Below are positions 39,933 through 60,720 of a DNA stretch of 64,000 nucleotides, one piece after another; the first letter of the stretch is position 1, and each line of letters opens with the position of its first letter. The stretch comes from an uncultured Candidatus Saccharibacteria bacterium (GTDB taxonomy: Bacteria; Patescibacteriota; Minisyncoccia; Phycocordibacterales; UBA2100): assembly GCA_964471165.1 (NCBI GenBank), contig CAYYEX010000004.1, forward strand, positions 22,378 to 86,377, given 5' to 3'. Below the pieces are notes generated by a model. It was not told the DNA's origin, searched no databases, and worked only from the letters and a program-made list of their open reading frames with translations. The translations under genes and the position numbers were made by a program.

Positions 39933-40104
39933 AATATCTATTGTTTGTTTTGCAAAAAAATTGACCCGCATAGCGAGCCGTGCCTTCGAGGATTCGAAGA
40001 TAAGTTCGCCAGTGGTCCCCGACCGGTATGCCGGAGGGACTTGGGTTGAGGCAGTATACGGAACTATGAGAAATATGCAAATCCGGCCTTAGTTGGGCGG
40101 TAGC

Positions 40105-40563
40105 TCAGGAGTGCGTATGAATAGACTCAATAGTCGGGGGAACGATACCGTGTTTATGGTGGCGGTGCAGCATGGCGCTGATGAACAATATAAGGAGTGC
40201 CGAAGTCACTCCGAGCCCTACAGGAATCGTGTAGTCATTGCCCCCGAAGCCAAATATAGCGTTTATCGAACAAAGAAACCCACACTCCCCGGAGCTCGAG
40301 CCAGTCGTTGCCTCGGCAGGTTGCCAAGTGATGTCGGATGCGGTTACCCCCTGCTGTGATGCCGCCTGTGCGAGGGATGCAACCATCGCATCCACCTGTG
40401 CGCTCGGGATACTGGCGGAGCGTGGGTCTTTCATTATTTCGGCGCGGATTGCCTCGGAGAGACCTGCGGACTGCGCACCCACAAGCAGTGGGAGTGAAAG
40501 AATAGCGGCTGCACACAATGCCCCGAACTTAAATGTGTCTTTCATAAAAATATTAGTTACCAA
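40105..40563 (-). CDS. small secreted / membrane-anchored protein (signal peptide, C-terminal TM, His-rich end)
   Basis: FKFGALCAAAILSLPLLVGAQSA signal; C-terminal hydrophobic helix, then HRHHKHG. Confidence 0.4.
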   Translation of the reverse strand: MVTNIFMKDTFKFGALCAAAILSLPLLVGAQSAGLSEAIRAEIMKDPRSASIPSAQVDAMVASLAQAASQQGVTASDITWQPAEATTGSSSGECGFLCSINAIFGFGGNDYTIPVGLGVTSALLILFISAMLHRHHKHGIVPPTIESIHTHS

Positions 40564-41434
40564 ACTGACCCGCTGGCTGGTACCACGTCGGAATTACGTT
40601 CACGCTCTTTGTTTCAGTGATTGTGCTTGGAGTGCCTCCGACAAGTGCGCGACAGAAGAGGGTGTAATCGGTTCGGCTTGTAATTGGGCTGGTGGTCATT
40701 CCAGTAGCACCTGAACCGAGCATGTTCCACTCCCCAGTAATACTCCCGGCTGCTCCGTCGCCGTTGGAACCGCGAACGGTGCAATCGCGTACATTTGATA
40801 CGTTCCAGAACACATAAGTCACGTCGCCCGCGCGAACGATTCCCGGCTGCACCTGCAAATGTCCGGATGCGTTGAATCCTCTTGTAGTCGCGAATCCTAT
40901 GAAATGCGGATTACCGTCAGGTGGAACGCATGTGTTACCCACTTTTGTGTATCCAGTAGGACAAGCCGGACAATTACCCGTAGTTGGATTTGGGGTAGAA
41001 CCATCCCAACACGAGTTCGGGGCATATGTTCCAGTGTATGAACCAGTGCCCGGGGTGTATGAGCCGGTGCCTGTCGGATACGAGCCGGTGCCCGGAGTGT
41101 ATGAGCCGGTGCCCGGAGTGTATGAGCCGGTGGTTGGGTCGTATGAACCCGTGGTTGGGTCGTATGAACCCGTGGTTGGGTCGTATGAACCGGTAACAGG
41201 AACGTATGAACCGGTAACAGGAACGTATGAAGCAGTGACTGTGCCGCCAGAGGCGGGAACCATTTGAAGTCCCGACGGGCTTTCGTCGGAAAACTGTGTT
41301 TCGACCGACAGCTCAACAGTGCGAGCAGACGAGTAGTTGAATAAGAGATATGCTGCGGCAAAAATCGCAAAGGCACTCACAATAAATCGACTATAGTCGC
41401 TGATGCGTAACGACTTCTTCGCATGTCGGGACAT
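40553..41434 (-). CDS. membrane-anchored protein with tandem heptapeptide (TGSYxP-type) repeats and a Cys-containing C-terminal domain
   Basis: TGSYVPV x2, TGSYDPT x3, TGSYTPG x3 and further variants; N-terminal TM anchor. Confidence 0.55.
   Translation of the reverse strand: MSRHAKKSLRISDYSRFIVSAFAIFAAAYLLFNYSSARTVELSVETQFSDESPSGLQMVPASGGTVTASYVPVTGSYVPVTGSYDPTTGSYDPTTGSYDPTTGSYTPGTGSYTPGTGSYPTGTGSYTPGTGSYTGTYAPNSCWDGSTPNPTTGNCPACPTGYTKVGNTCVPPDGNPHFIGFATTRGFNASGHLQVQPGIVRAGDVTYVFWNVSNVRDCTVRGSNGDGAAGSITGEWNMLGSGATGMTTSPITSRTDYTLFCRALVGGTPSTITETKSVNVIPTWYQPAGQFGN
41029..41240. repeat. About ten 21-bp tandem repeats encoding the heptapeptide array
   Basis: Directly visible: ccggtgcccggagtgtatgag x2, cccgtggttgggtcgtatgaa x3, ccggtaacaggaacgtatgaa x2 and further units. 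Confidence 0.8.
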
Positions 41435-41495
41435 ATTTATCTATTATTGTACTTCATCTCTACTCGAATTGATTCCGCACTGTGTATAGCTGAGC

Positions 41496-42740
41496 TTACG
41501 ATTCCCCCTCTAGACAAAGCGAGCGATATTGTTCGGGAATCAACGCGCAACGCTCAGAGCGCGATTGACCCCTCGGGATATACCTCGATATGCTTACCGC
41601 AAGATCATGGAAACAGAAATCTTGAGATTTTGAGTCGCGTAAGAGCGAACAGAAACGTGCAGAAACGGAAGGTTCGGCATCACCCCCCCAGAAAAATGTA
41701 GATAGTGCATACGATTTGCATACAAGCGCGTCCGCTTCGTCACTCGCGTGGTTGCAAAGATTTTCCACTGCACGAAGCTGCTCATCTGTATACAATCCCT
41801 CGTCGAGCTTTCTTACATCATGGCCACCGACATTGTGTGGAAAGTCCTTTCCGAAGGCACCAGCGCACGCGCTTCGGTTTGCGCCGTGTGGCAAGAGTGC
41901 ACAAACAGCCATCCCCCGACTCAACTGTGTGTCGGTGAATGTTTGCATATTCGCACCAGCATATTCCATAAAGTGCGGACTCATGTATACGTAGCAGCTC
42001 GCTTTTGCGCTTTCAGGAATGAGTGCAGTGTCGCAAGGGGCAAGAGGGTTTTTAGGGTCAAAGTATTTTCTATTGGCTTTCACCCACAGCTCGACATCGT
42101 GCCCTCCGCCGCCGACAAGCTCCATCACTGCCCCACCAATACACTCCTTCGACTGAACGAAATCGTACTCCTTGGTACCGGTTTTTTCGCAGAATGCGAC
42201 GGTTTGCGGGAAACTGAAACCATAGTATGCGAAAACCCCATGACCGAGTCCGTGGTAACACATTGAATACGCACTGCCTCCACCGGGCGCAGAATGACAC
42301 GCATCGTCTATGAGTTTGCGCACACTATCCCCGTCGCCCAGTTCTTGCATCGTCTCTATTACAATCGAATGCGAACATCCATTGCGAAATTCCTGTGTAC
42401 ACACAGACATACCCTCGATTCCCTGTTGCGCATAGAGCTCGTGTCCGATTGCATGCGCAATGAGATGAATGTCGGTATCCAGTGGCAATATCGCTTCTCG
42501 CAGTACCGCAAAAGAATATTCGGCACCTTTTACTTGTGCAAGTTCACCAAATCGTTTTGAAAGTTCATTAAGCGACGGCGTGCCACTTCCAATTGTTGCG
42601 ACCTCAGGATAGTTGGCTACCGTGCTCACCTTTGACTCCCGCACCATTACGAGTCCTGCACACACCGTGAGCACAGCAAGTGCTGCAAGAAGTTTTTTTG
42701 TTGAAATGCCCGACACCATCGAAATAAGTATAGCCGACAC
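41496..42740 (-). CDS. Cys/His-rich secreted protein, paralog family member 1 of 3
   Basis: Signal anchor. Shares ordered motifs with 53186..54412 and 62558..63622: H.IGH ... C....C..GC.H(S/G)(I/V) ... C(Y/V)HG(L/V)GH ... C..G.(F/V)ME. Confidence 0.55.
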   Translation of the reverse strand: MSAILISMVSGISTKKLLAALAVLTVCAGLVMVRESKVSTVANYPEVATIGSGTPSLNELSKRFGELAQVKGAEYSFAVLREAILPLDTDIHLIAHAIGHELYAQQGIEGMSVCTQEFRNGCSHSIVIETMQELGDGDSVRKLIDDACHSAPGGGSAYSMCYHGLGHGVFAYYGFSFPQTVAFCEKTGTKEYDFVQSKECIGGAVMELVGGGGHDVELWVKANRKYFDPKNPLAPCDTALIPESAKASCYVYMSPHFMEYAGANMQTFTDTQLSRGMAVCALLPHGANRSACAGAFGKDFPHNVGGHDVRKLDEGLYTDEQLRAVENLCNHASDEADALVCKSYALSTFFWGGDAEPSVSARFCSLLRDSKSQDFCFHDLAVSISRYIPRGQSRSERCALIPEQYRSLCLEGES

Positions 42741-42753
42741 GATGTCTCATTGT

Positions 42754-43560
42754 TTAATGTGGACGCGCTTCAAGCGCGGCATCAATCTTCTGACGGTTCT
42801 CATAAATCGCGTTGCGCAGCGTCTCGAGTCCGACTTTGGCCGCGCGTGGCGCGTTACCCGGATAGGCATTGTGCCAATCTTGTTCACTGAGTGCGTCAAC
42901 ACCGAGAGATGCCAATCGCGCTGCCTCCGCCGCCTCACGAAGACGTCCCAGTTCGTAGAGTGTGGTTGCACGCACACTCAGGAGCCAAGGATTTTCCGGA
43001 TGCAGGACAAGTCCGGAATCGATATTGAGCAGCGCCTCGTCAAAGCGACGCACTTTTACCAATGCCCACGCGTAGTCGGTGCGGCCCTCCCACCCTTCTG
43101 GATGCATTGATACATATATACCGTAATCGCGCGCTGATTCCTCGGACATGCCGAGATACCCCTCAATCAAACCTCGCAGGTAGTATGGCGCGGACTGTTC
43201 TGCTTGTGCTTGTTGCTGTATTTCCACATTCACCTCTGCAAGCGCCTGTTCGTAATCACCATTCAAGAAATGAATGCGCGCAAGCTGATGGTGCGCCATC
43301 GGGTAGTTCGGTTCGAGGCGCAGTGCCGTTTTAAAGTAGCTCTCGGCTCTCGCAAGGTCGTACGCCCGCCCCGGAACATTAATGTGGCCAATGCCATATG
43401 AGTACGCCCGCTCAGCAGAAGGAAAGAGCGCAAATGTAATGCGCTGAAAATTGAGCACGAAAAGTGCCACGACGACGCAAATAACTACAACTCCTGCACG
43501 CATGTACGAGAAACTTTGCATCTCAGCTATTGTACCGTGACGACCATTTTTGGCTCTCAT
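42754..43560 (-). CDS. membrane-anchored TPR-repeat protein (tandem paralog A)
   Basis: N-terminal TM, then TPR-like helices. It aligns throughout with 43557..44366 (e.g. YYLRGLIEGYLGMS vs YYVKGLIEGFMGSY; HPENPWLLS vs HPKNPWLLN). Confidence 0.6.
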   Translation of the reverse strand: MRAKNGRHGTIAEMQSFSYMRAGVVVICVVVALFVLNFQRITFALFPSAERAYSYGIGHINVPGRAYDLARAESYFKTALRLEPNYPMAHHQLARIHFLNGDYEQALAEVNVEIQQQAQAEQSAPYYLRGLIEGYLGMSEESARDYGIYVSMHPEGWEGRTDYAWALVKVRRFDEALLNIDSGLVLHPENPWLLSVRATTLYELGRLREAAEAARLASLGVDALSEQDWHNAYPGNAPRAAKVGLETLRNAIYENRQKIDAALEARPH

Positions 43561-44366
43561 TCGTGTGAACTCGACGCGATGTAGATTTCGATTTTTTCAA
43601 AGTTAAATCTCGCAGCGTTTTGAAGTGTCAGAATTCCTGCCGCAGTAGTGTTTGGGTCGTTACCGGGATACGCCGCCCACCACGTTTCCTCATTCATCTT
43701 GAGCGACTCCTCTTTTGCAAGCGCAGCAACCTCAAGTGCCTCGGGGTAACGCTTCAGCTCAAACAACGCCGTTGTCTTACTGTTGAGAAGCCAAGGGTTC
43801 TTAGGATGCGTTTCAAGTGCGCGATTCAATACAGTGAGTGCCTCGTGCGGACGGTTTCCTCGAAGGAGGACCCAAGCATAGTCGTTCAAGCCCGCCCAAT
43901 TATTAGGATCGGATTTCAGAAACTGCTCGTAACTCAACGCCGCGTTCTGATACGAGCCCATAAACCCCTCTATCAACCCTTTTACATAGTACGAAGACGG
44001 CATTGGTTCCGCTGTTATGAGGAGTTCGGTATTGATGTGCGAGAGCGCCTGTTCGAATTGTCCGCGCAAGAAATAGAGACGGGCGAGATGGTGGTGTATG
44101 TGCGGATACACAGTATCAATTTGCTGCGTCTTATCGAGATACTTCCCCGCCCGACGTATGTCGTATTCCTCTGGAGAGCGAGCATCAAGGTGCTTGATTG
44201 CGATTGTGTACGCGTGTTCTGCTGTGGGATTTACAGCAAAACGAATATCCTCGTACGCATATCCTGCATATCGTGGGATGCTATTTATGCCCACAGCAAA
44301 AAGCGTAAGAACAAAAACTCCGGTCAGGATCCACTCTCGTTTTATTCCAGACGTTCTGCGCGTCAT
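43557..44366 (-). CDS. membrane-anchored TPR-repeat protein (tandem paralog B)
   Basis: See the previous entry; 4-nt overlap (translational coupling). Confidence 0.6.
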   Translation of the reverse strand: MTRRTSGIKREWILTGVFVLTLFAVGINSIPRYAGYAYEDIRFAVNPTAEHAYTIAIKHLDARSPEEYDIRRAGKYLDKTQQIDTVYPHIHHHLARLYFLRGQFEQALSHINTELLITAEPMPSSYYVKGLIEGFMGSYQNAALSYEQFLKSDPNNWAGLNDYAWVLLRGNRPHEALTVLNRALETHPKNPWLLNSKTTALFELKRYPEALEVAALAKEESLKMNEETWWAAYPGNDPNTTAAGILTLQNAARFNFEKIEIYIASSSHE

Positions 44367-44378
44367 GTGACGAACAGT

Positions 44379-45545
44379 TTACTGCGTCTTCAGGTCGGGA
44401 ATCGCAAGTGCGAGCTCAATCGCTGCCTTAAAATCAGGAGAAACATTCATGACTTTCGTAAACGTTTTCCATGTCCCCTTCGTAGGGGCATTCTTTTCTT
44501 CGTTCCGGGCAACACGTATAAATGAAGATGTAAGCGGATTCTTTAGCGCACCCAACTCCTTTGCAAGCTGATCCGCCTGCTTCTTTGCAGCTACTGTGTC
44601 TTTATCGTACTTCAACAAATAGTGTGCATAGTACAATCGATCGAAGAATACATTGTTCATCGTTGATTCCGTGTTGGCCTCGAGTGCAATACGAATAGCC
44701 TCTTCGTGTGCCTCCTTGTAACGGGAGAGGTACTCCTTGTCCCCGCGAGCAGCGAGCCATGCAATCGCATGCGCATTCCAAAAATGATACTCGCTGTACA
44801 TTGGATCTTTCTTATAGTCACCTACCGCATTCTGTATCTCCTTCTCCATAAGGCTCTCGCCGAGCGCTACGTACTTACGCGCTGTAGCTCCATACTCCTC
44901 TCGACGTTCTGCGGAAAGTGAGTTATCGATTGCGTATTGCTGAGCATACCAACGCGCCACTCGCACCGCTGCAAAAGCCGTCGGCTTGACACTATATGAC
45001 CACTCGGCGAGATTTCGAGCGGACGCATCCGGATCACCGGGAGCTAGGTAGCTCGAAAAAGGCGCATCTTTATAGAGTTCAGCAAAAGCAAGTGGATCAC
45101 GGCCGGATGAACAATATGCGAACGCGAGCTTATTGAGTGCAAGTACACGCACAGTAAGATCAAGATTCGGGTCCAAAAAGACCTTCTTGAGCTCCTGTAT
45201 TGAAACAAGGATATCTTTCACGTCACCGCTCAACTTGAAGTTGACCTTAGTAGACCCGATGATTGCTAGTGCTTTCTCATTTGGAACGGCGTTCTCGTCG
45301 TTGAGAATCAAATCACGCTGCTCTCGTGCGGCCTGCCAGTCATTTTTGTTTTGGCTTTCGTAGAGCGCCAATGGCGCAAGATCACTAATGCCGCCCTTGG
45401 AGAGCGACTGGTTCAATCCAGTGTATACGGCATATAACGCCGCCAGAGCGATAAGTATTGCGACAGCTGTGCCAATATAGACCAGCTTCATGGGATGAGC
45501 TTCCTTCTGCGGAGTAGGATTTATAGGTGTAGTTTTATTTTCCAT
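44379..45545 (-). CDS. membrane-anchored hypothetical protein (388 aa)
   Basis: N-terminal TM (LVYIGTAVAILIALAALYAVY), then a large helical extracytoplasmic domain; no motif. Confidence 0.4.
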   Translation of the reverse strand: MENKTTPINPTPQKEAHPMKLVYIGTAVAILIALAALYAVYTGLNQSLSKGGISDLAPLALYESQNKNDWQAAREQRDLILNDENAVPNEKALAIIGSTKVNFKLSGDVKDILVSIQELKKVFLDPNLDLTVRVLALNKLAFAYCSSGRDPLAFAELYKDAPFSSYLAPGDPDASARNLAEWSYSVKPTAFAAVRVARWYAQQYAIDNSLSAERREEYGATARKYVALGESLMEKEIQNAVGDYKKDPMYSEYHFWNAHAIAWLAARGDKEYLSRYKEAHEEAIRIALEANTESTMNNVFFDRLYYAHYLLKYDKDTVAAKKQADQLAKELGALKNPLTSSFIRVARNEEKNAPTKGTWKTFTKVMNVSPDFKAAIELALAIPDLKTQ

Positions 45546-45557
45546 AGGAAAAATGTT

Positions 45558-45785
45558 TCAGCAACCGCCGTCGTCACCACAGCCGCAGGCTTCGGCGGAT
45601 GTGCTGTCACCAGCGCACGCCGGAGCATCCGCATGTGCAACACCGTCCAGCGGTGTTGCGCTCGATTGAGGATTTCCTTTCGAATTAATTCGAGAAGCGC
45701 CAAGCAATACTATTGCCATACCACCAACGATTAGCGCTGCATTTCTAATCTTCGCAAGCAGACTGTTCCGGCCAGATGAATCCAT
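45558..45785 (-). CDS. small protein with a Cys/Gly/Ser-rich C-terminus (PACAGDSTSAEACGCGDDGGC); candidate RiPP precursor divergent from the YcaO gene
   Basis: 75-aa ORF 36 nt from the YcaO start on the opposite strand. The C-terminal 25 aa are rich in azole-forming residues (5 Cys, Ser, Thr, Gly). However, an N-terminal hydrophobic helix and the lack of an SD sequence reduce confidence. Confidence 0.3.
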   Translation of the reverse strand: MDSSGRNSLLAKIRNAALIVGGMAIVLLGASRINSKGNPQSSATPLDGVAHADAPACAGDSTSAEACGCGDDGGC

Positions 45786-45821
45786 TTCGTTTATAGTAAC
45801 GCGGGTCTGGAAAAATCCACA

Positions 45822-47333
45822 ATGGTACGTGTGGATACGGGCAAAAACAACGGCCCCGAGCGCGTGACCCTGTGTGATATTATCGCGAACATGATAATAG
45901 ACGGTGAGCTGCTCTCGGATTCCGCCAGAAAGACCATGTCCCCGGGAGAATCCGCAGTGAGCGCCTTCATTTCATTCATTGAGAGAAGGCTAAACGTCAC
46001 GGTCGTACGCGAGCTGCGCAAATACACTTGGGGAAATCCGCGTCTAGCCTCGGCAGCCGAACTCGCAGTTCTTTTGCAAGATAGACACATCGCACAGTCA
46101 TTTCAAAGAATGTCCCAGCGCGCAGATGAACCACGCCTTCTGCGCTGGAATGCGGTAGGCTTTGGAGAGTCGGAACATCGTTCAGGCGGGGCTTCATTTT
46201 CCATCGAAGAGAACGCACTCTATGCATGCGTTGCAGAGTCTCTCGAACGGTATCTCTGGTCGGAGAAGTCCGATTATTTCCGAAAGCCGATGCACGGAAC
46301 CGAGCGTGAGGTGGGTTCACGCACCCCTATCATTCCAGTCGCACGATTCGCAGGATTTTCCTGCGAACAACGTGCACAAAACCCGAAACTCTTTATCTCA
46401 CCAGAGACATCTTTCCTGTGGATTGAGGCGGTCTCGGTTATAACCGGACAGAATGTCCACGTGCCAGCCCAAGTAGTCAGCGGCTACAACGATGCGCAGC
46501 GCACAGGTGTGCCTGCCGAGCCGAGCATCCGACCGCGGATAACAACAGGCCTCGCCACTTGGCGAGATGTTTTGGGAGCACGTCTGCGCGGTGCGCTCGA
46601 GGTGATTGAGCGCGACGCATACATGATTATGTGGCTCAATCAGCTCGTACTTCCGCGCATCAATCTCAAAGATATCTCGGCGAGAAATGCGGAAGTACTT
46701 CGCCAAATACAAAGTTGTGAACGCTATGGATTACGTGTTCATGCGATTCGTATGATTACCGACGCCCCCACATATGCAATATGTGTTGTTGTCGAAGATA
46801 CATATACTTCTTCGCCAAAATATTCGGTGGGTCTGAAAACTGGGCACTCAATCGCCGATGCTATTCTCGGGGCATTGTCCGAGGCACTTCGCGCACGTTG
46901 GAGCACTCGCCACAAAGTAGAACAAGGAACCTTGTGGGATGAAGCGCGCCCCGTTTCCGAAATTGGCCACACGGAGCGACTCGTGTTCTGGGCAGATGCC
47001 GGGCGTTCCCACAAACTTGATTTTTTGATTGCTGGACAAGAGACACGTTTTACTCCTGAGGAGTGGGAGTCTGACAGCGACGCGACTCATCTGAAACGCC
47101 TTGTCTCGTGGTGTAAAAAGACGGGCTACGAAATGATTTCTGTGGGACTCGACACTCCCAGCAACAATCCGCTGCCATGGCACGTGGAAATGACCATCAT
47201 TCCCGAATTACAGCCCATGTATTTGCACGAATCGAAACATGTTCTCGGAGGAACTCGAATCTCGACTATCCCGAGTATGTTCGGATACCCCGCGCGAGCT
47301 CCTTACCTCGATACCCCGCATCCATTCGCCTAA
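45822..47333 (+). CDS. YcaO-domain protein (azoline-forming cyclodehydratase family)
   Basis: SFSIEENALYACVAESLERY and ALEVIERDAYMIMWLNQ match the YcaO ATP-binding signatures (S...E..ERY, E.IERD). ATG at 45822. Confidence 0.7.
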   Translation: MVRVDTGKNNGPERVTLCDIIANMIIDGELLSDSARKTMSPGESAVSAFISFIERRLNVTVVRELRKYTWGNPRLASAAELAVLLQDRHIAQSFQRMSQRADEPRLLRWNAVGFGESEHRSGGASFSIEENALYACVAESLERYLWSEKSDYFRKPMHGTEREVGSRTPIIPVARFAGFSCEQRAQNPKLFISPETSFLWIEAVSVITGQNVHVPAQVVSGYNDAQRTGVPAEPSIRPRITTGLATWRDVLGARLRGALEVIERDAYMIMWLNQLVLPRINLKDISARNAEVLRQIQSCERYGLRVHAIRMITDAPTYAICVVVEDTYTSSPKYSVGLKTGHSIADAILGALSEALRARWSTRHKVEQGTLWDEARPVSEIGHTERLVFWADAGRSHKLDFLIAGQETRFTPEEWESDSDATHLKRLVSWCKKTGYEMISVGLDTPSNNPLPWHVEMTIIPELQPMYLHESKHVLGGTRISTIPSMFGYPARAPYLDTPHPFA

Positions 47334-47337
47334 ACAT

Positions 47338-48066
47338 ATGACTCGCTTCATTTCTCATCTTCACTCTGACTTGCGTCACGCACGCACCACGCGGCGAGGT
47401 GCTACAAAGGCTGCGTCAGAGGTGCCGCTTGGACTTCATAAAAAGTATCCGCGCATGAAGCGCATACCGCTGCCAGATGTGACACTTCCTGACGCAACAA
47501 TCACTGAGGTCCTCCGTACTCGTCGTTGCGCCGAGTACGGTGAAATTGCGTTCGATATTACATTCAAAGATTATGCCGCACTCTTCAGCATGACGCTCAA
47601 GCAGCATGAAAATACAAACCACCGTCCCTACCCTTCCGGAGGTGGACTCTATCCCATTGAGACATATCTGCTGACTCCTGTATTTGATAGCCAACCGGGT
47701 GGCGTATTCCACTACAATCCAAGCGAACACGCACTTGAATACCTGTGGCCACTAAAGGACAGTGCCGGTTTTAGGAAGCTTTTGCCTCGTGCAGAACCTC
47801 TTGAATTCAGCGCGCTGCTCGTTTTCACTTCGGTCTGGGACCGCTCCTCTGCCAAGTACGGCGATTATACTTATCCGTTCGGACTTCTCGAGGCCGGGCA
47901 CATGTCGCAAAATATTTTGCTCGCAGCCACAGCGCTCGGAATCGCAGCTCGGCCAATGGCCGGCTTCAACGATGGGGCGCTCATCGATAATCTAGATGTC
48001 GACCCCGACTACGAACAGCCTATTCATACCGTTACCCTATCGAAAACGCGCGAAAAACGCTCGTAA
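47338..48066 (+). CDS. SagB-type dehydrogenase (nitroreductase superfamily; azoline oxidase-like)
   Basis: RPYPSGGGLYPIETYL is the TIGR03605 hallmark (R.YPSAG..YP.E.Y). The ATG lies 4 nt after the YcaO stop. Confidence 0.65.
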   Translation: MTRFISHLHSDLRHARTTRRGATKAASEVPLGLHKKYPRMKRIPLPDVTLPDATITEVLRTRRCAEYGEIAFDITFKDYAALFSMTLKQHENTNHRPYPSGGGLYPIETYLLTPVFDSQPGGVFHYNPSEHALEYLWPLKDSAGFRKLLPRAEPLEFSALLVFTSVWDRSSAKYGDYTYPFGLLEAGHMSQNILLAATALGIAARPMAGFNDGALIDNLDVDPDYEQPIHTVTLSKTREKRS

Positions 48067-48101
48067 TTGAATATACGTGGCGACAGAGTATCCTGTCTCT
48101 C

Positions 48102-49490
48102 ATGCCGCTACTTTCGAAGAACTTTCCTCACCTCTCTCGTATCGTCTTCGAGATGCGTCGCGTCTATCGAAAACTGTTTTCCGTCCAGGAGATTGAGTCC
48201 TCTTCACAGCTCCAATGGATGCTCGGAGCATCACTCCTCTACCTATTTTTCACTTTCAACAACTGGGCGGGCAACACAAGTGTAACGGTCGAGGCGGCAC
48301 AACAGGGGCGAGCCGTCTGTTGGCCGTATTTTCAACATTGTTCGGATTACTTCTTCCTTCACATGTTGCCGTACGGGTATTCGCAGACAATTTTTTACAT
48401 GGTGCTCTACGGCGTGATGATGCTCATCGTCTGGGCCATGTGGCGACAGAAATGGACCACTGCACATGCACTGTACGCACTTTTGATTCTATGGGAGATG
48501 GCGGTCGTGTACGTCTTTTCTTTTCAGTCGGCAGCACCATACCACTACTATCACATCATTCTCGGATTGATGTTGATATTCGCGTCACACAAAGAGTTTT
48601 TCCTGAAACTTTCGTTCGTGCTAATGTACTTCCTTTCCGCCACAACGAAGATTGATTCCACTTGGATACTCGGTTCGTACTTTACGTCGCTCGAAAATGG
48701 ACTGCCGATTTTTCCCGGATGGTCTACACCGCTGCTTACCAACGCGGTGATGTTTATGCAGATGATAGGTAGCTGGTTTTTGATTTCAAAACGGGCTGCG
48801 CTGCGTCATATCGCGTTCGTGTACTTCATGTTCTTCCACTTCTATTCAGGTGTATTTGTGTTGTATGAATATCCAACGGTAACACTCCCGACCCTCGCAG
48901 TACTTTTTGGCCCCATGTATCGCTATACGCCGATTCCCTTTGGGAGAAAAACAATTGTCGGCTGGGTAATACTCGTGATTGTGTGTGCCGTGCAAGCATT
49001 GGGATTCATAGCACCCGGAGACAGACGCATTACGATGGAGGGAAACAAGTTCGGCATGTTTATGTTTGAGGCAAATCATCAGTGCGCCGTAACGATAACA
49101 AGCTACACGGACACAAAAGTTTCTTCATCGACTCCTGGATTTGCACCGGACGGTTGTTCGGGGCAATACTGCCACACGCGATCAACTTCAAAACGAACAG
49201 CTGGGATTCTCGCTCGAACTGATGTCTACGAAAGTGGCAGCTCATGGAACCGCTGCTATCCGTATATCTGGTGGTCGAAACTTCATCTACAGTGTGGGCT
49301 GCGCCCCGGTCTCACGCGCGTCGCATTGCGCATCGACCACTCAATCAACGGCGGCCCCTTCTACAGAATTGTCGATGAGCCCGACGTATGCTCCCTTTCG
49401 TATCTCCCATTCGGACCAAATTCTTGGATTAAAAGTCCACCAGAAGCCCCCGCGATAGGCTTACCGGTACGCAATGCGTATCACTACTAA
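48102..49490 (+). CDS. polytopic integral membrane protein (8 or more TM); possibly HTTM/VKGC-like, a family often seen next to RiPP clusters
   Basis: The N-terminal 300 aa are very hydrophobic and W/F/Y-rich; the C-terminal ~150 aa are soluble and Cys-containing. I cannot verify the HTTM assignment by eye. Confidence 0.5.
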   Translation: MPLLSKNFPHLSRIVFEMRRVYRKLFSVQEIESSSQLQWMLGASLLYLFFTFNNWAGNTSVTVEAAQQGRAVCWPYFQHCSDYFFLHMLPYGYSQTIFYMVLYGVMMLIVWAMWRQKWTTAHALYALLILWEMAVVYVFSFQSAAPYHYYHIILGLMLIFASHKEFFLKLSFVLMYFLSATTKIDSTWILGSYFTSLENGLPIFPGWSTPLLTNAVMFMQMIGSWFLISKRAALRHIAFVYFMFFHFYSGVFVLYEYPTVTLPTLAVLFGPMYRYTPIPFGRKTIVGWVILVIVCAVQALGFIAPGDRRITMEGNKFGMFMFEANHQCAVTITSYTDTKVSSSTPGFAPDGCSGQYCHTRSTSKRTAGILARTDVYESGSSWNRCYPYIWWSKLHLQCGLRPGLTRVALRIDHSINGGPFYRIVDEPDVCSLSYLPFGPNSWIKSPPEAPAIGLPVRNAYHY

Positions 49491-49688
49491 ATATGGAAGC
49501 AACTACTACGTATATTGTTCTGCGCGAGCTCGCCGGTAATTCGCCCAACTCGCTCAATGCCGTGCAGATGTTACTCGAGCCGCATATCGACCTCTTGGTG
49601 ATGCTCTGGCGTGTGGCATGGATATGCACCGCAGTGACCGTAATCGCAATTTACGCGCAGGCATATCGCAGACATCGAATGAATCGAT

Positions 49689-51326
49689 ATGAGTGACCGC
49701 GCCCGACTGCGCGAGGCGATTGCAGGAGCGTTTAAGTACCGCGACCGGGATGGCGCAGTTATCATCGATCAATCGGGGTCCCAATCGAGGTGGATTGCTG
49801 ACTTCCGCTCGATTGTTCTTCGTTCAGAATGGCTCAACCTATATGCAAAACTTTTTTGGGAGACTTACGGAAATCGCTATCCATTTCAGGTTGCTGGTAT
49901 GGAAACCGTTGGTATCGCGCTCGTCGCAGCAATTGTGATGAAAGGGGCTGAGATTGGGAAACCGGTCAATGGTTTCTTTATCCGAAAGTCTCGAAAAAAA
50001 GATGGTCTCATGAGAGCTATCGAAGGAACCTTAACCAAGGAGCCCGTGATTCTTGTCGACGACCTCATCAACTCCGGAAACACATTCGACAAACAACTCT
50101 TACTGCTCGACGGAATGGGTTTGAGCGTGACTGATATCTTTGCAGCCCTCCGATTCCGCCCAACTGAAGCATATACATTCGCTCAAGAGCGCAACATCGC
50201 GGTCACGGCACTTTTTAGTCTCAAGGACTTCGGTCTGCCGCTACGACCTGTGAGTGAGCCCGTGGTTCCACATTCCTCATTTTCGAAACTGTGGCACTAT
50301 CAGGCACCACATCCGTCACTCCAAGTTGTTGCAGAAAAATCCGCTCCTACCCTTTTTGAGAATCTAGTCCTCTTTGGATGTGATGACGGTGTTCTTCGCG
50401 CACTTGATACTGAAAGTGGCACCCTCGTCTGGGAGTTTACAATCGGACGACATCGCGGTGGTAAAGGGATTCTTTCGAGTCCTGCCGTACACGATGATGT
50501 TGTCTACTTCGGTGGATACGATGGAAACGTTTATGCGCTTGATGCGCGTACAGGGAAGAAAAAATGGTCCTATGAAGAGGCAGATTGGGTGGGCTCGTCG
50601 CCGGCAATCGACATAGCACGAGGGCGCCTCTATATCGGTCTGGAATTTGGCCTCTTCGGGAAAAAGGGCGGTATCGTTGCACTCAAACTCGCAGACGGCA
50701 GCGAGATTTGGCGCGACACAACCGTCGCATTCACACACGGCTCCCCCCTCTACATTCCCGAAGAGGATATGGTGGTTATCGGTAGCAATGACCATATCGT
50801 GTACGCCTACGACGCTGGGAACGGTGCTCGTTTGTGGACATTTGCAACAGACGGAGACATCAAATCCAAACCCGCATACGACACAAAACGCCGCCATATC
50901 GTGGTGAACTCCATGGATGGTTCCTGCTATGTATTGAGAGCGCGCGATGGAGAACCGCTGTTTGCAAAAGAAGCCGAGTTTGGATTTTACTCATCTCCGC
51001 TCATACACGGTGACACTATATATTCAGCATCGCTCGACAAGACACTCTACGCGTTCAATGCAGAAACATATGCAGACGAGTGGGTGTTTGAAACGCAGGG
51101 TCGAATATTTTCCTCTCCTACTCTATTCGATGACTCACTGTGGGTGGGTTCAAATGATGGTCGGCTCTACGAGCTGAATCCGCAGACAGGTGCACTTAAA
51201 AACTTCTTTCAAGCAACTGAGCGGATTGTGAATGCGCCCGTGTATGAAGTCTCGTCACAACGCATTTTCGTGCCAACACAGGCAAACGAAATCTACTGCA
51301 TCAAAAAAGAGTTCGTTCAACATTAA
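49689..51326 (+). CDS. fusion protein: N-terminal type-I phosphoribosyltransferase (OPRT-like) domain plus a C-terminal PQQ-repeat beta-propeller
   Basis: PVILVDDLINSGNT (PRPP-binding loop) in the first 200 aa; then 6-8 repeats of the ..DG.(L/V)YALDA.TG...W.. type. Confidence 0.6.
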   Translation: MSDRARLREAIAGAFKYRDRDGAVIIDQSGSQSRWIADFRSIVLRSEWLNLYAKLFWETYGNRYPFQVAGMETVGIALVAAIVMKGAEIGKPVNGFFIRKSRKKDGLMRAIEGTLTKEPVILVDDLINSGNTFDKQLLLLDGMGLSVTDIFAALRFRPTEAYTFAQERNIAVTALFSLKDFGLPLRPVSEPVVPHSSFSKLWHYQAPHPSLQVVAEKSAPTLFENLVLFGCDDGVLRALDTESGTLVWEFTIGRHRGGKGILSSPAVHDDVVYFGGYDGNVYALDARTGKKKWSYEEADWVGSSPAIDIARGRLYIGLEFGLFGKKGGIVALKLADGSEIWRDTTVAFTHGSPLYIPEEDMVVIGSNDHIVYAYDAGNGARLWTFATDGDIKSKPAYDTKRRHIVVNSMDGSCYVLRARDGEPLFAKEAEFGFYSSPLIHGDTIYSASLDKTLYAFNAETYADEWVFETQGRIFSSPTLFDDSLWVGSNDGRLYELNPQTGALKNFFQATERIVNAPVYEVSSQRIFVPTQANEIYCIKKEFVQH

Positions 51327-51330
51327 GAAA

Positions 51331-51362
51331 ATCCGGATGACGTGGCCATCCGGACTTTTTCT
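51331..51362. terminator. bidirectional terminator hairpin (TCCGGATG-ACGTGGC-CATCCGGA flanked by AAAA/CTTTTTC)
   Basis: Lies between the convergent genes ending at 51326 (+) and 51391 (-). Confidence 0.5.
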
Positions 51363-51390: not shown

Positions 51391-51636
51391 TCAGCCGGCG
51401 CGACGCGGCTTGCCGCTCACCGGGGTTGCAGCGGGCTGCTTGTTCAGCTTCGCGTTCTCGCACGATGCGTTGGCGCGACTGGGCGAGAGGCGCGGATTCT
51501 TGTTCATCTTGCACTGCGAGCACTGCATCATCGGCATCTTCGCGCACTGCGCGAAGGCGACGGTGGGCGCGCCGATTGATGACGCTGCGTAGACAACTGC
51601 TCCAGCGAGCAGGCCGAGGAACGATTTTCTCATAGT
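51391..51636 (-). CDS. small secreted Cys-containing peptide (81 aa precursor, about 50 aa mature)
   Basis: GGGAGGA 8 nt upstream of the ATG at 51636. Signal peptide MRKSFLGLLAGAVVYAASSIGAPTVAFA, then QCAKMPMMQCSQCKMNKNPRLSPSRANASCENAK... The track start at 51750 is an extension. Confidence 0.45.
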   Translation of the reverse strand, partial: TMRKSFLGLLAGAVVYAASSIGAPTVAFAQCAKMPMMQCSQCKMNKNPRLSPSRANASCENAKLNKQPAATPVSGKPRRAG

Positions 51637-51777
51637 GGAATCCTCCCTGGTCGGACGCGATGGATATCCATCGACACATCTCCGATACCGATTTACACGG
51701 TACCCCGCTTGACGATATGTGTCAAGAGCGTCCAAGCACCGATTTGGCATTGGGGCGTATCATGCGAAGATTGCCCC

Positions 51778-52557
51778 ATGAACGTTTTTGAATCTGTACC
51801 TGAGTTTGTAAATCTTGATAATCGCGTGTCACGCACATTCAGTCCCATTTCAGCCGAGCAAATGCTACACAAGCACGAAAGCCTGCTCCCCCGCGAGCTC
51901 GTCGAAGGAAAAACAGTGCTCGATCTCGGATGTGGCATCGGTGCGACCGGCCATTGGTGCCTCAGCAACGGTGCGGCGCACTACACCGGCGTCGAGCCGC
52001 AGCAAACGTACATGGAAACGGCCGATTCGTTGTTGAAAAAATATTATCCCGGTCGTGCTGATATCGTTCACACTTCGCTTGAACAGTACCTACGTGAGCA
52101 CAACACCCAATTTGACGTTGTCACCGTACTGGCCGTATTGCATGCATCGGTCGATATATGTAGTCGGCTCGAACAGATTACGACTCGTACCCGCGAAGTC
52201 GTGGCAATCGAAGAACTGCTTCCCCGTCTCAATGCAAAGGACCCATCGTTCAATGGTGTCGAGTTTTCACAAACCGAAGGAATAAACTTGGCTGACACGA
52301 ACGCATCGCTCTCGGGGCGGGGCGCTCGCATTTCACCCCTCGGCCTCGCATTTCTTATGGAGGGTTTCGGTTTCGAATCATCGGGGGTACTCCCGATACG
52401 CCCTATTTCTGATACTGTTGACAACTTCAACGCCCCTCAGAAGCCCAGTAATGCTCGCTACGTAATGAGATTTCGCCGAACCGGTACTATGCGCGGGAGC
52501 GTCTCGGAAAATATGCTCACCGGAAACAGGAGCGCCATTAAACCATGGCTGGTATGA
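51778..52557 (+). CDS. class I SAM-dependent methyltransferase, CmoB-like (carboxymethyl-transferase-like)
   Basis: [28 protein letters not shown] vs E. coli CmoB [40 protein letters not shown] vs FDTVFSMGVLYH. Confidence 0.5.
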   Translation: [259 protein letters not shown]

Positions 52558-53198
52558 CAGATCGTTGGGAGTTCGACGAGTCAGTTGCGAAACGCTTCGA
52601 CGAAGAGGCCCGCAAGCACATCCCTCATTACGAGGAAGTCATCCAAGCGTCGCTCTCGATTGCACTCGATGTTTTTCCAGACAAAAAGGCACGGGTACTC
52701 GATGTCGGTTCCGCTCTCGGGCACACACTCGAAGTATTTCGGGCGGCGGGATTTGAAGATGTGCATGGCGTCGATAACTCAGCGGCGATGCTCGCTCACT
52801 CGCGAGTCCGCGATAACCTGATACTTTCTGACTCGTTTCCAAGCGATGCCGGGATGTTCGATGTTGTAACTGCAAACTGGACACTCCACTTTATTCGTGA
52901 CGCATCCCTGCGCGCACTCTACATCCACGACATTTCTAAAAGTTTATCCGCGGAAGGTGTGTTCATACTGACCGACAAGATGGAAGCAACGCAAGACGAA
53001 TACGATGGCTATCACAACTTCAAACGCACGATGGGTCTCTCTGATACTGAGATTAATGAAAAGGCTCGTGCTCTTGAGGGAGTGCTGATTCCCTTCCCGG
53101 TGCAATGGTACGAAGAGATTCTCAGTCAGACAGGTTTCCGGTCAGTTGAAGTAATCGATTCGCAATGGTGTTTCAATACCTTCGTATGTCGAAGATAA
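52545..53198 (+). CDS. CmoA-like methyltransferase-fold protein (carboxy-S-adenosyl-L-methionine synthase-like)
   Basis: WEFDESVAKRF / IPHY / DVGSALG / VDNSAAMLAHSR / VVTANWTLHF / HNFKRTMGLSDTEI / SQWCFNTFVC line up with CmoA WTFDERVAEVF / VPGY / DLGCSLG / IDNSPAMIERCR / VVLNFTLQF / HDFKRANGYSELEI / FQCFNFGSLVA. It overlaps the CmoB-like gene by 13 nt. Confidence 0.6.
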   Translation: MAGMTDRWEFDESVAKRFDEEARKHIPHYEEVIQASLSIALDVFPDKKARVLDVGSALGHTLEVFRAAGFEDVHGVDNSAAMLAHSRVRDNLILSDSFPSDAGMFDVVTANWTLHFIRDASLRALYIHDISKSLSAEGVFILTDKMEATQDEYDGYHNFKRTMGLSDTEINEKARALEGVLIPFPVQWYEEILSQTGFRSVEVIDSQWCFNTFVCRR

Positions 53199-54412
53199 AT
53201 ACACTGTTAGTCGCCGCAGGAATCATAGCCGTGTTTTCAGTATTTTTGGGATACATATTCACTCAAACCAATGTACGAGGAACGCAGAGTGTGGAACACG
53301 CTCTGGATTCTCTTTCCCCCTGCTTCACTGCGCGCAACCCCGAAGATAAAGCTGACCTTGCGTGTCTCGAGCGCGAAGTGAACGAACTCCTCTCCAAGTT
53401 CCCGACCCACGCTGTAATGAGCAAGATTAGTGCGAGCACATCTCCACTGGTGGTAGTGAGAAATTGTCATCTTATCGGGCACATGATTGGGCACAAAACA
53501 TTTCAGAGGACACCCTCGCTCGAGGATGCATACGAGCAGTGCACCGCGAGTTGCAAAAACTCGTGTGTTCACGGCGTCACAACCGAAGCAATATCTCAAG
53601 AATTGGGCGAGTCGTACGTGGCAGAGGATTTGTCACACGCTGACGGCGAGACCCTCGCAACGATTGGTAAACGGTACTGTGACCGACAAAAGGTGCTCTG
53701 TCACTCAGTGGGTCATCTATTACGCATTGCGCTCAAGTCGTATCAAGCCGCGCTTCCTATATGCGAACAGATGGGTACTAATAAAATCGATTGTTATAAG
53801 GGAGTATTCATGGAAGATGCGGCGTCTATCGAGCTCACAACGCGAGGACTGCCCGATCAAACAATTGCTCAAGAAAATTACGTGTCCCCATGCGCATCGG
53901 TACCAACGAAGTATGGACGGCAATGTTTCTGGTACCTCCATCTTTATCAGTCGAGCCTGTTCGAAAAGAACGGCATCTCCACAACGGCAGAACAATTGCG
54001 GATATTCCGCAATGCATGTGATTCTTTACCCGATCAACAGCGTGCATGGTGTTACTACGGCATGGGAGGAAATGCATACCGAGATCGTGACGAAGACGGA
54101 TCTCCTGTCGACATAGTGACATTTTGCGACCCGATTATTCGCTCAGTAGATAGGACACAGTGTACGGTGGGCATTGTGCGCTCGTATTTTACAACGGTCC
54201 TCCCGCGCCCTGACAGGGCACGGACATTTTGCGAGCAGCAGGCAAACGTTCAGTTGAAAAACACATGCTATGAGACAGTATTTACCCTCGAGAGTGAAAG
54301 TCTCGCAACGTCGTCGATAGAAGCTTTGTGTGGACCTGTTCCCTCGATAGCATGCACTGCCGCATTCAACACATACACACCCCCCCGCAACCCAATCGAG
54401 TCCGACGACTAA
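53186..54412 (+). CDS. Cys/His-rich secreted protein, paralog family member 2 of 3
   Basis: Signal anchor MSKINTLLVAAGIIAVFSVFLG; motifs as for 41496..42740. Confidence 0.55.
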   Translation: MSKINTLLVAAGIIAVFSVFLGYIFTQTNVRGTQSVEHALDSLSPCFTARNPEDKADLACLEREVNELLSKFPTHAVMSKISASTSPLVVVRNCHLIGHMIGHKTFQRTPSLEDAYEQCTASCKNSCVHGVTTEAISQELGESYVAEDLSHADGETLATIGKRYCDRQKVLCHSVGHLLRIALKSYQAALPICEQMGTNKIDCYKGVFMEDAASIELTTRGLPDQTIAQENYVSPCASVPTKYGRQCFWYLHLYQSSLFEKNGISTTAEQLRIFRNACDSLPDQQRAWCYYGMGGNAYRDRDEDGSPVDIVTFCDPIIRSVDRTQCTVGIVRSYFTTVLPRPDRARTFCEQQANVQLKNTCYETVFTLESESLATSSIEALCGPVPSIACTAAFNTYTPPRNPIESDD

Positions 54413-55521
54413 TGCATATGAATCGACTTATTTACTACAAATCCGGCGCTGTAACAACACCGGAGGCACGTCTTCTCCCCGGAATGGACCGTTTCGCATC
54501 GTTTTTTGAAATTACAAACGACACAGCAATGCCAGTCGATCGCACAGGAACCATACGTTTTCCCATTCGAACCCATTCTCTTTTTTCAATGCCGACACTG
54601 CGTCCCTATACAAAATCATATTCAGAAACATGTGACGAGCGGGCTGTCGAGATTCTCAAGCGCGCTACTGCATTGAATGTCGATGTGCGAGTAATGTGGT
54701 CTGGTGGAATTGATAGCACGGTTGCACTTGTCGCACTGCTTAAAAACGCAACAACCAAAGAGGAGCTGCAGCGCATCGTTGTATTACTCTCCGAGGAATC
54801 AATATCGGAAAATCCCCGCTTCTTTGAAGCACATATCCACGGAAAGATCCGGTACGACTCTGCAATCATGTTTCCATACCTTCTTGGCACGAAGCACATC
54901 CTTGTAAGCGGAACGCATAACGACCTGCTTTTTGGAAAAGATATTGTAGGATCGATCGTGAGTCGGTTCGGCATGTCGAAAGTTCTCAGTTTAATAGACC
55001 GAGATATTCTCCGTACTTTTTTAGCAGAAAAGACAGGTGCTGCCGATACTGCTGAATTTTATATTGAATTATTTGAAAAACTGCGCGCGATTGCTCCTCT
55101 GCCAATTGACTCAATCTACAATCTGTTCTGGTGGTTCGACTTCTGTACAAACTGGCAAAAAGTGTACACGTCAATTCTTCCGTTCACTGCAGAGCGAAAC
55201 ATACCACTTATTACGAGTGAATATGTGGATACGTACTACATGCCTTTTTTCAATACGGAAGATTTTCAACTGTGGAGCATGAACAATCTTGATAAACGAA
55301 TAAAGGACACGTGGGAGTCCCATAAGTGGCCGGCAAAAGACATGATTTACGATTTCACAAAAGACGCTGAGTATCGTGACACAAAGATAAAACGAAGTTC
55401 ACTCTACTTCCTCATCGTGCAACAAAAGTCTGTGAACTTTATTGATGAGTCGTTTCGATTTTTTGACGAAGCGACCAGTACCGATTACTACGACCCAAAG
55501 AACGATTTCAGAGACGAGTAA
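54412..55521 (+). CDS. PP-loop (SGGxDS) ATP-pyrophosphatase superfamily protein, paralog 1 of 3 (asparagine-synthetase-C-domain-like / adenine nucleotide alpha hydrolase)
   Basis: VRVMWSGGIDSTVALVALL at about residue 115. The start overlaps the previous stop (TAATG). C-terminal block FNTEDFQLWSMNN...KWPAKD..Y.FT.D..YR..K.KR.SL is conserved in all three copies. Confidence 0.6.
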   Translation: MHMNRLIYYKSGAVTTPEARLLPGMDRFASFFEITNDTAMPVDRTGTIRFPIRTHSLFSMPTLRPYTKSYSETCDERAVEILKRATALNVDVRVMWSGGIDSTVALVALLKNATTKEELQRIVVLLSEESISENPRFFEAHIHGKIRYDSAIMFPYLLGTKHILVSGTHNDLLFGKDIVGSIVSRFGMSKVLSLIDRDILRTFLAEKTGAADTAEFYIELFEKLRAIAPLPIDSIYNLFWWFDFCTNWQKVYTSILPFTAERNIPLITSEYVDTYYMPFFNTEDFQLWSMNNLDKRIKDTWESHKWPAKDMIYDFTKDAEYRDTKIKRSSLYFLIVQQKSVNFIDESFRFFDEATSTDYYDPKNDFRDE

Positions 55522-55559
55522 GTAGCGACGGACATGCGTTTGTACTAAGATATACCGAC

Positions 55560-60638: not shown

Positions 60639-60720
60639 GGCATGGAGTATAGCAAAAGGCGCCCTGTTTTGAGACACATATCTTCCCGCAAAAAAACCTT
60701 GTGATATCGTTAGTCTGCAT

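Follow-up and report, generated by a model that had tools for sequence, protein, structure and literature searches.

The stretch of DNA analysed in this work (the window) comprises 64,000 nucleotides of contig CAYYEX010000004.1, and it holds a gene cassette in which a small peptide is encoded beside a YcaO cyclodehydratase and a SagB-type FMN dehydrogenase. An earlier reading made from the letters only (the sequence-only reading) had proposed that these genes form the core of a maturation system for a ribosomally synthesised and post-translationally modified peptide (RiPP), of the thiazole/oxazole-modified microcin (TOMM) or linear azol(in)e-containing peptide (LAP) type. This interpretation is supported by the analyses described here, and the gene coordinates given with it were verified exactly on the open reading frame (ORF) map of the window. 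The YcaO gene (45822..47333, +; 503 aa as annotated) is followed after 4 nt by the SagB gene (47338..48066, +; 242 aa). Behind them come genes for an accessory polytopic membrane protein of 462 aa, with a Cys-rich C-terminal domain and an HTTM/GGCX-like predicted fold (48102..49490, +), for its conserved companion, a single-pass membrane protein of 67 aa (49493..49696, +), and for a fusion of an orotate phosphoribosyltransferase (OPRT)-like phosphoribosyltransferase (PRTase) with a beta-propeller (49689..51326, +). A terminator-like bidirectional hairpin with a 14-bp stem (51328..51358) closes this operon. On the opposite strand, 36 nt from the annotated YcaO ATG, lies the gene for a 75-aa precursor peptide (45558..45785, -), and next to it the gene that we call w388 (44379..45545, -). 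The span drawn in the sequence-only reading was too narrow: it left out the PRTase-propeller gene (49689-51326), the operon that joins the peptide to w388 and to the membrane proteins with tetratricopeptide repeats (TPRs) or TPR-like helices downstream of it, and the fixed position of the whole beside rplC.

Judged from its proteins, the host genome is a member of the candidate phyla radiation (CPR) and is Parcubacteria/Kaiserbacteria-like, because the more than 200 homologues of the YcaO protein, at 38-53% identity, all come from metagenome bins of Parcubacteria, Paceibacterota, Kaiserbacteria and Minisyncoccota. The sequence-only reading had considered the case of a CPR-like genome; its remark that azole RiPP clusters are little described in such genomes needs tempering, as they have already been counted at survey level (PMC7298704). 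Our comparison set consists of about 30 related CPR loci from a genome scan, with synteny counted over 29, and of loci from a metagenome scan anchored on the PRTase gene.

The YcaO protein matches PF02624 with an E-value of 2.3e-37. Its best NCBIfam family is TIGR03604 (SagD), at 179.5 bits, and the alignment reaches the last position of the model. The signature blocks noted earlier are real: all 27 aligned homologues keep the ATP/Mg2+-binding E..ER motifs E139/E142/R143 and E260/E263/R264, and a C-terminal PHPF[AS] is invariant in the homologue alignment too. Because the homologues are about 480 aa long and align from M24, the true start is probably at 45891, which would give a protein of 480 aa and a divergent intergenic region of 105 nt. 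An AlphaFold2 model of the protein (pLDDT 89.5, with low confidence for residues 1-50) finds its best PDB match in LynD (4v1v, E 5e-23), and further fold matches in the YcaO peptidase 7u58, MjYcaO, TruD, E. coli YcaO and McbD (6gri, E 1e-13).

Two other classes of YcaO were considered and rejected. The protein is not of the E. coli or RimO-associated type, as there is no match to NF040716 (YcaO_for_S12) at E <= 0.01, the best family is SagD and the best structure LynD; the name 'S12 methylthiotransferase accessory factor' that JGI attaches to the homologues is a generic orthology label. The thioamide-forming McrA type was rejected on a TIGR03266 score of 44.1 bits against a cut-off of 365, and no TfuA-like gene occurs among the scanned cassette proteins. 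The SagB assignment holds as well, in preference to a generic nitroreductase. The protein scores 100.6 bits with TIGR03605, above the cut-off of 78.4, matches PF00881 and carries both RPYPSGGGLYPIETY and the Lys-Tyr motif SSAKYGDY. This Lys-Tyr pair, which Melby and colleagues reportedly found in 2014 to be essential, is retained in 56 of 58 distinct CPR homologues.

That no separate E1-like/ocin-ThiF partner is present had also been observed before, and a wider search agrees. None of the cassette proteins matches TIGR03603, TIGR03882 or TIGR03693, and tblastn with four E1-like/ocin-ThiF partner domains against the window and 30 CPR loci returned nothing below E 0.8. Paralogous CPR YcaOs are also without an E1-like domain, and one of them has an AMMECR1-like N-terminal domain in its place. 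Outside the CPR, the closest YcaOs are canonical TOMM enzymes from Nostoc, Rhodobacteraceae, Paenibacillus and Ginsengibacter (26-28% identity), which reach 280-326 bits with TIGR03604; a separate or fused E1-like/'TOMM leader-binding' domain (TIGR03882, TIGR03603) accompanies each of them, and SagB comes next. Canonical TOMM clusters that combine TIGR03604 with TIGR03882/TIGR03603 and TIGR03605 (L031 Aliinostoc, L037 Ginsengibacter, L045 Paenibacillus) share the YcaO-then-SagB order with the CPR cassette, which differs from them in a YcaO family at only about 180 bits on TIGR03604 and in having no leader-binding domain. A RiPP recognition element (RRE) within the N-terminal ~105 residues of YcaO was considered and rejected, because the model there, with residues 1-50 at low confidence, runs alpha-beta-alpha-alpha-beta-alpha-beta-beta-beta, which is not the beta3-alpha3 topology of an RRE. 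Other stand-alone TOMM YcaOs likewise carry 63-100 residues ahead of the TIGR03604 start.

A side observation concerns one CPR protein of 1074 aa (L024 6661-9885, -), in which an AMMECR1-like (AmmeMemoRadiSam protein A-like) N-terminal domain is fused to a SagD-type YcaO. Directly downstream of this fusion lies a very Cys-rich precursor with a 97-aa core (L024 6099-6608, -).

The precursor peptide family

The 75-aa ORF had been put forward as a candidate precursor and the assignment called weak. The candidate was well chosen and the caution too great: the comparative sequence evidence makes the assignment strong, with a conserved peptide family whose Cys/Ser-rich core tracks the presence of YcaO and SagB. 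No Pfam or NCBIfam model matched the ORF, it is uncalled as a gene in the source assembly, and a homologue search with the peptide returned a single protein, P0241. The leader covers residues 1-53 (nt 45627-45785) and consists of a basic N-terminus, a hydrophobic helix AALIVGGMAIVLLGA, a linker and a GVAHAD junction. The core covers residues 54-75 (nt 45561-45626) and reads APACAGDSTSAEACGCGDDGGC; the C-terminal end of the ORF is PACAGDSTSAEACGCGDDGGC. The stop codon stands 12 nt ahead of the start of w388, and the two genes are therefore almost certainly co-transcribed.

Small ORFs of like build sit in the slot between the divergent w388 and YcaO genes in L001 and L003. When about 30 loci were searched in six frames by motif and composition, the matches were almost confined to this slot, with 3 spurious ones elsewhere, and because of this concentration we do not take the small ORF for a chance ORF. 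The genome loci gave 22 distinct syntenic peptides, and the PRTase-anchored metagenome scan brought the total to 61. All begin with a basic N-terminus, which leads into a hydrophobic run free of charges and, through a linker, to a junction and a hypervariable tail; the run and the linker each have a median length of 19 aa. The logo of the junction is G-[VI]-A-x-A before the putative cleavage point and [DE]-[AV]-P after it; position -3 is A, V or S in 53 of the 61 peptides, position -2 is variable and Pro stands at +3 in 41 of 61. Tails are 22-97 aa long and contain 30% Gly, 18% Ser, 16% Cys, 11% Asp and 10% Ala. RiPP precursors are classically recognised by just this combination of a leader that is conserved and a core that is hypervariable. 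Paralogous cassettes away from the ribosomal genes, at 2-3 cassettes per genome (L007, L011, L021, L027), each have a peptide of their own, and L093 has two precursor genes in tandem.

Two other small ORFs were tried as precursors and rejected. The ORF at 51391-51636 (-), of 81 aa with a signal peptide and 5 Cys, had been suggested for precursor scoring; it has no homologue in the related loci. It is convergent with the PRTase gene and uses the same terminator, and in L001 and L003 that slot is taken by unrelated small secreted proteins. The ORF at 49493-49696 is conserved, but it is the membrane partner of the HTTM-like gene and is not Cys/Ser-rich.

The metagenome scan also found the module of peptide, w388 and PRTase at loci without YcaO or SagB, e.g. 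L117, L121, L127, L149 and L156. The same leader is seen there on poly-Asp or poly-Gly/Asp tails, in L149 (5910-6299, -), L117 (4919-5209, +) and L127 (7683-7925, -), with a run of 17 Asp in the tail from L149. These three loci keep the PRTase-propeller, and L149 and L117 keep the HTTM-like gene.

In general, tails from YcaO-less loci are rich in Asp and Gly, in the extreme poly-Asp, and have no more than 2 Cys. Among 50 cores within 4.5 kb of a YcaO gene the median number of Cys is 4, Cys, Ser and Thr together make up 32% and Asp and Glu 13.5%, and 32 of the 50 have at least 4 Cys. The corresponding figures for the 6 cores flanked on each side by 3 kb or more of sequence without YcaO are a median of 1.5 Cys, 17.5% and 30%, and none has as many as 4 Cys. 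By Mann-Whitney test (50 versus 6 cores) the p-values are 0.011 for the percentage of Cys, 0.006 for Cys, Ser and Thr and 0.0007 for Asp and Glu. The direction of this difference in composition is as expected if YcaO and SagB were to act on Cys and Ser in the tail.

Companion proteins and chromosomal setting

The PRTase-propeller is a core cassette gene with Pfam and NCBIfam matches. Its product combines a type I OPRT-like domain (about residues 22-183) with an 8-bladed PQQ/BamB-like beta-propeller and has no signal peptide. The OPRT of M. tuberculosis (5hkf) matches the PRTase domain with E 1e-8 over residues 22-183. An RKSRK loop and the phosphoribosyl pyrophosphate (PRPP) motif VDDLINSG (VILVDDLINSGNT) are invariant in 17 homologues. 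With TIGR00336 the domain scores 53.9 bits against a cut-off of 106.8, and by its sequence the protein is PRTase-like and not a demonstrated orotate PRTase. In 19 of the 29 loci of the genome scan the gene comes after either SagB or the HTTM-like gene, a placement repeated in every metagenome relative of at least 50% identity having upstream sequence. It is present where YcaO is absent, and so it is not merely a helper of YcaO.

For the 462-aa protein the sequence-only reading had offered an HTTM-like factor as one guess. At the level of predicted fold the guess is borne out, as the modelled fold matches GGCX, the vitamin-K-dependent carboxylase, uniquely. The PF05090 model does not bear it out, since by sequence neither the window protein nor 27 homologues and 10 distant members gave any Pfam or NCBIfam match. 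A profile of the protein found nothing among PDB sequences, only the fold search giving a match, and hhalign against the GGCX sequence was not significant (E 0.059, probability 0.9%). Relatives of the protein number 641 cluster representatives at E <= 1e-3. A Smith-Waterman alignment places its invariant K183 on K218 of GGCX within a common YFxxxxxKxDxxWxxG; this segment, picked post hoc, scores 49 against 25.4 +/- 4.6 for shuffles, and the local score of the whole protein against GGCX was equalled by 8 of 200 shuffles. K218 is said, from work by Rishavy and colleagues in 2006, to be the catalytic base of GGCX. Conservation of their putative active-site motifs suggests for both the PRTase-propeller and the HTTM-like protein an enzymatic rather than a scaffolding role.

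The HTTM-like gene is accessory, being found in 9 of 29 genome-scan loci (about one third). It is always followed by a conserved ORF of 60-67 aa for a single-pass membrane protein, in the window at 49493-49696, which is called as a gene in the source contig and has homologues in the same slot in L005, L006, L012 and L014. In the YcaO-less loci L149 and L156 the HTTM-like gene directly adjoins the peptide gene, and for this reason we assign it to the peptide rather than to YcaO. SdpB, from the SdpC toxin system of B. subtilis, is an HTTM-domain protein. Linaridin RiPP clusters contain HTTM genes of unknown role (PMC9927463).

The w388 protein, also a core cassette product, has a membrane-anchored N-terminus and is all-helical with faint TPR similarity; its gene adjoins the peptide and YcaO genes in primary and paralogous cassettes alike. 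Further leftward come two membrane-anchored TPR proteins with Pfam matches (42754-43560 and 43557-44366, both -), which are conserved neighbours in 18 of 29 loci, and then three exported or membrane-anchored proteins (40105..42740, -), the Cys/His-rich w414, w293 with TGSYxP repeats, and w152. No Pfam, NCBIfam or PDB sequence match was found for w388 and no PDB sequence match for w414. All members of this leftward string (peptide, w388, the two TPR proteins, w414, w293 and w152) are exported or N-terminally anchored. The exported 293-aa protein (40553-41434, -) is built of TGSY[VDT]P[VTG] tandem repeats and a Cys-containing C-terminal domain, and is conserved between the TPR genes and rplC.

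At its far end the leftward string reaches rplC (39315-39971) and so continues directly into rplC-rplD-rplW-rplB (L3-L4-L23-L2). The order w152, w293, TPR and w388 adjoining these ribosomal genes recurs in 11-12 loci of the genome scan and also in several metagenome loci. In L001 and L003 the cassette occupies the gap between rpsJ and rplC, with S10, MurL and EF-Tu as flanking genes that are not within the window, and the YcaO-less loci L142 and L149 use the rplC-side position as well. This position is constant across lineages whose YcaOs share only about 40% identity. Antibiotic clusters do not usually occupy a fixed site that looks vertically inherited. The ORF map with Pfam and NCBIfam scans revealed no transporter or protease genes in the terminator-bounded operon. 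Scans of the window for tRNAs and Rfam families gave no match, and a promoter scan did no better than chance.

A proposed maturation scheme and competing explanations

We consider it fairly probable that the cassette is a lineage-specific variant, in Parcubacteria/Paceibacteria, of a TOMM/LAP-type system for the maturation of thiazole/oxazole peptides. Computation has shown to which families and folds the proteins belong, how the genes are arranged across loci, that the peptides form a family and that core composition goes with the presence of YcaO; we infer the chemistry (azole formation by homology), the topology in the membrane, the cleavage step and what the PRTase, HTTM-like and TPR proteins do. 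The 75-aa precursor would be made with its signal-anchor-like leader. In the cytoplasm, the ATP-dependent YcaO would cyclodehydrate Cys, and probably Ser and Thr too, in the core to azolines, which the FMN-dependent SagB would oxidise to azoles. With no E1-like partner, the leader would have to be recognised by YcaO itself or by another cassette protein. The leader helix, with its N-terminal side positive, would then use the general Sec/YidC route to insert the peptide in the membrane or carry it across, and this would account for the absence of a dedicated exporter or protease. Outside the cell, the acidic azole-bearing tail would either be released at the A-x-A/D-x-P junction, which obeys the -3/-1 rule of signal peptidase, or be left anchored. 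There it may meet the membrane-anchored w388 and TPR proteins and, in about one third of loci, the GGCX-fold protein with its 67-aa partner, and these might tailor or mature it further. The PRTase-propeller, being kept in loci that have the peptide and no YcaO, would work on this peptide or together with it whether or not azoles are formed.

Several points weigh against this scheme. Azoline-forming YcaOs normally require an E1-like/ocin-ThiF partner, and there is none at this locus. The YcaO protein falls short of the curated TIGR03604 cut-off (179.5 against 219.25 bits), which marks it as a divergent branch, and its C-terminal PHPF[AS] is not a full PxPxP. The hydrophobic run of the leader ends a median of 19 residues before the A/D site, far beyond a normal signal-peptide c-region, and cleavage by signal peptidase I is doubtful for that reason. 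Some cores beside a YcaO gene have 0-1 Cys (e.g. L108, L132, L159). Finally, the YcaO-less set behind the composition contrast is small (6 cores and 5 more with short flanks) and not phylogenetically independent.

Bufferins, whose Sec-signal precursors are modified before export (PMC11626156), offer a useful parallel. In both systems an N-terminal export signal replaces or overlaps the leader, Cys heterocycles form in the cytoplasm (a prediction in the CPR cassette) and there is no dedicated exporter. The enzymes, however, are unrelated, MNIO and DUF2063 there and YcaO and SagB here, and bufferin signal peptides are canonical, whereas the A-x-A site of the CPR peptides lies about 19 residues past the hydrophobic stretch.

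As background, YcaO clusters of this general kind are not new to the CPR. Sharrar et al. (2020, mBio; PMC7298704) list 110 YcaO 'LAP' clusters in 93 CPR genomes (51 Parcubacteria), with a nitroreductase beside YcaO in 89, and give as an example one Microgenomates cluster with a peptidase and an 84-aa precursor. The present cassette almost certainly belongs to this population. In the text consulted there is no description of this precursor family or of the missing E1 partner, and none of the PRTase-propeller, of the protein with the GGCX fold or of the position at the ribosomal locus. Our literature search on YcaO in Parcubacteria, Patescibacteria or CPR returned survey-level mentions only and no account of these features. 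CPR clusters of YcaO and nitroreductase are thus already known, and what is unusual here is the precursor, the lack of an E1 partner and the two unexpected companion enzymes.

If the TOMM/LAP-type reading is true, a branch of azole-forming YcaOs works without the E1-like partner thought necessary for azoline synthesis, and a family of RiPP precursors uses a signal-anchor-like leader and general secretion. It would also tie a PRPP-dependent transferase-propeller and a bacterial vitamin-K carboxylase fold to one defined, testable peptide substrate; to our knowledge, neither enzyme type has a known role in peptide maturation. In bacteria of the CPR, whose genomes are tiny and in which hardly any secondary metabolism has been recognised, the cassette is nonetheless kept at a fixed site by core ribosomal genes and duplicated in some genomes, and on this reading it would provide a handle on the surface biology of these episymbiotic cells.

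A bolder reading, which we put forward only tentatively, is that this is not an antibiotic cluster and that azoles are one optional tailoring step. In its place there would be a Paceibacteria envelope system, by rplC, around a membrane-anchored polyanionic Asp/Gly-rich peptide, and the universal partners, a cytoplasmic OPRT-like PRTase/propeller and, in many lineages, a GGCX-fold enzyme with a catalytic Lys, would carry out chemistry new for ribosomal peptides. Such chemistry could include phosphoribosylation of the peptide and, outside the cell, a carboxylase-like modification of its acidic tail that a propeptide directs. Beside the predicted fold and an invariant Lys that a post hoc alignment places in the YF..K.D..W..G context of K218, there is the parallel that GGCX acts on an acidic stretch after a recognition propeptide, as the CPR peptide has an acidic tail after its leader. 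That said, there is no significant sequence match to GGCX, the CPR tails are Asp-rich and Glu-poor, and the HTTM-like gene is accessory. We know of no quinone synthesis in CPR bacteria.

An ordinary secreted LAP antibiotic (cf. microcin B17, phazolicin and heterocycloanthracin), with a cleaved leader, activity against competitors or the host, and membrane neighbours that serve export or immunity or are unrelated, seems to us unlikely. Microcin B17 (McbA, with the E1-like McbB, the dehydrogenase McbC and the YcaO McbD) does show the same pairing of YcaO with a SagB/McbC-type enzyme next to a precursor with a core made up mainly of Gly, Ser and Cys. The hypervariable cores, the tandem precursors of L093 and the presence of 2-3 cassettes per genome are typical of bacteriocin diversification, and antiSMASH-type surveys label such CPR clusters LAP (PMC7298704). 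However, the CPR cassette has neither a McbB-like E1/RRE partner nor McbEFG export/immunity genes, and is altogether without an ABC exporter, a leader protease or an immunity gene. Its leader is a hydrophobic signal-anchor-like helix, not a soluble one; its core is strongly acidic (11% Asp), unlike known LAP antibiotics; and it adds the PRTase-propeller, w388/TPR and HTTM-like genes. The fixed site by rplC, across lineages with YcaOs only about 40% identical, argues against an antibiotic, and so does the occurrence of the peptide/w388/PRTase system without YcaO, on poly-Asp tails unable to form azoles (L149, L117, L127).

Metal handling is a very unlikely function. On this account an exported tail of Cys/azole and Asp residues would chelate metals at the cell surface, like bufferins or methanobactin, with the TPR, Cys/His-rich and HTTM-like neighbours as handling factors. 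It draws on the richness of the tails in Cys, Asp and Gly, on the Cys/His-rich exported neighbours w414 and w415, and on the precedent of the bufferins, in which a Sec-signal precursor with Cys heterocycles binds copper (PMC11626156), but the cassette contains no metal transporter, regulator or chaperone genes. Metal handling concerns the function of the product and is compatible with azole maturation, not exclusive of it.

Hardest to credit is a reading in which the small ORF does encode an acidic surface peptide anchored in the membrane, but one that is not the substrate, the enzymes modifying instead e.g. a ribosomal protein encoded nearby or a Cys-rich exported neighbour: protein-acting YcaOs exist (the thioamidation of McrA is one such case), the cassette lies in a ribosomal-protein gene region, the peptide family is found without YcaO and there is no recognisable leader-binding domain, but Cys/Ser enrichment of the tail tracks the presence of YcaO and SagB, every paralogous YcaO cassette distant from ribosomal genes has an adjacent peptide, and the presence of a SagB implies that the substrates are azolines, for which Cys/Ser/Thr-rich peptides are the only known source.

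Neighbouring genes

Several genes around the cassette recur in related genomes. Two paralogous membrane-anchored proteins of about 415 aa, with many Cys and H-x-I-G-H-like motifs, are encoded at 41496-42740 (-) and 53165-54412 (+). They gave no family match and no PDB sequence match, and relatives of them adjoin YcaO cassettes in L008, L015 and L027. On a related groundwater Parcubacteria contig, a RelB/YafQ-type toxin-antitoxin pair lies between rpsJ and tuf (L001 16339-16884).

Beyond the terminator that separates them from the YcaO operon, a gene for a CmoB-like methyltransferase (51709-52557) overlaps one for a CmoA-like carboxy-SAM synthase (52545-53198), together spanning 51709-53198 (+). 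The CmoA-like protein scores 82 bits with TIGR00740, under the cut-off. The pair stands just downstream of the PRTase-propeller in L088, L094, L096, L101 and L105, and CmoA alone does so in L017; these genes may simply serve tRNA cmo5U modification, or they may form a tailoring pair.

Further downstream, at 54328-57325 (+), lie w397 with a PP-loop SGGIDS motif (54328-55521), w224 (55560-56234) and w364 (56231-57325), which belong to no Pfam family and are found again on the downstream side of the cassette in some 16 related loci. A cupin is encoded at 57389-57970, and two adjoining AMP-binding/CapK-like adenylate-forming enzymes (451 and 499 aa) at 57992-60758 (-). The CapK-like pair recurs near the cassette in L003, L006, L023, L026 and L114-L119.

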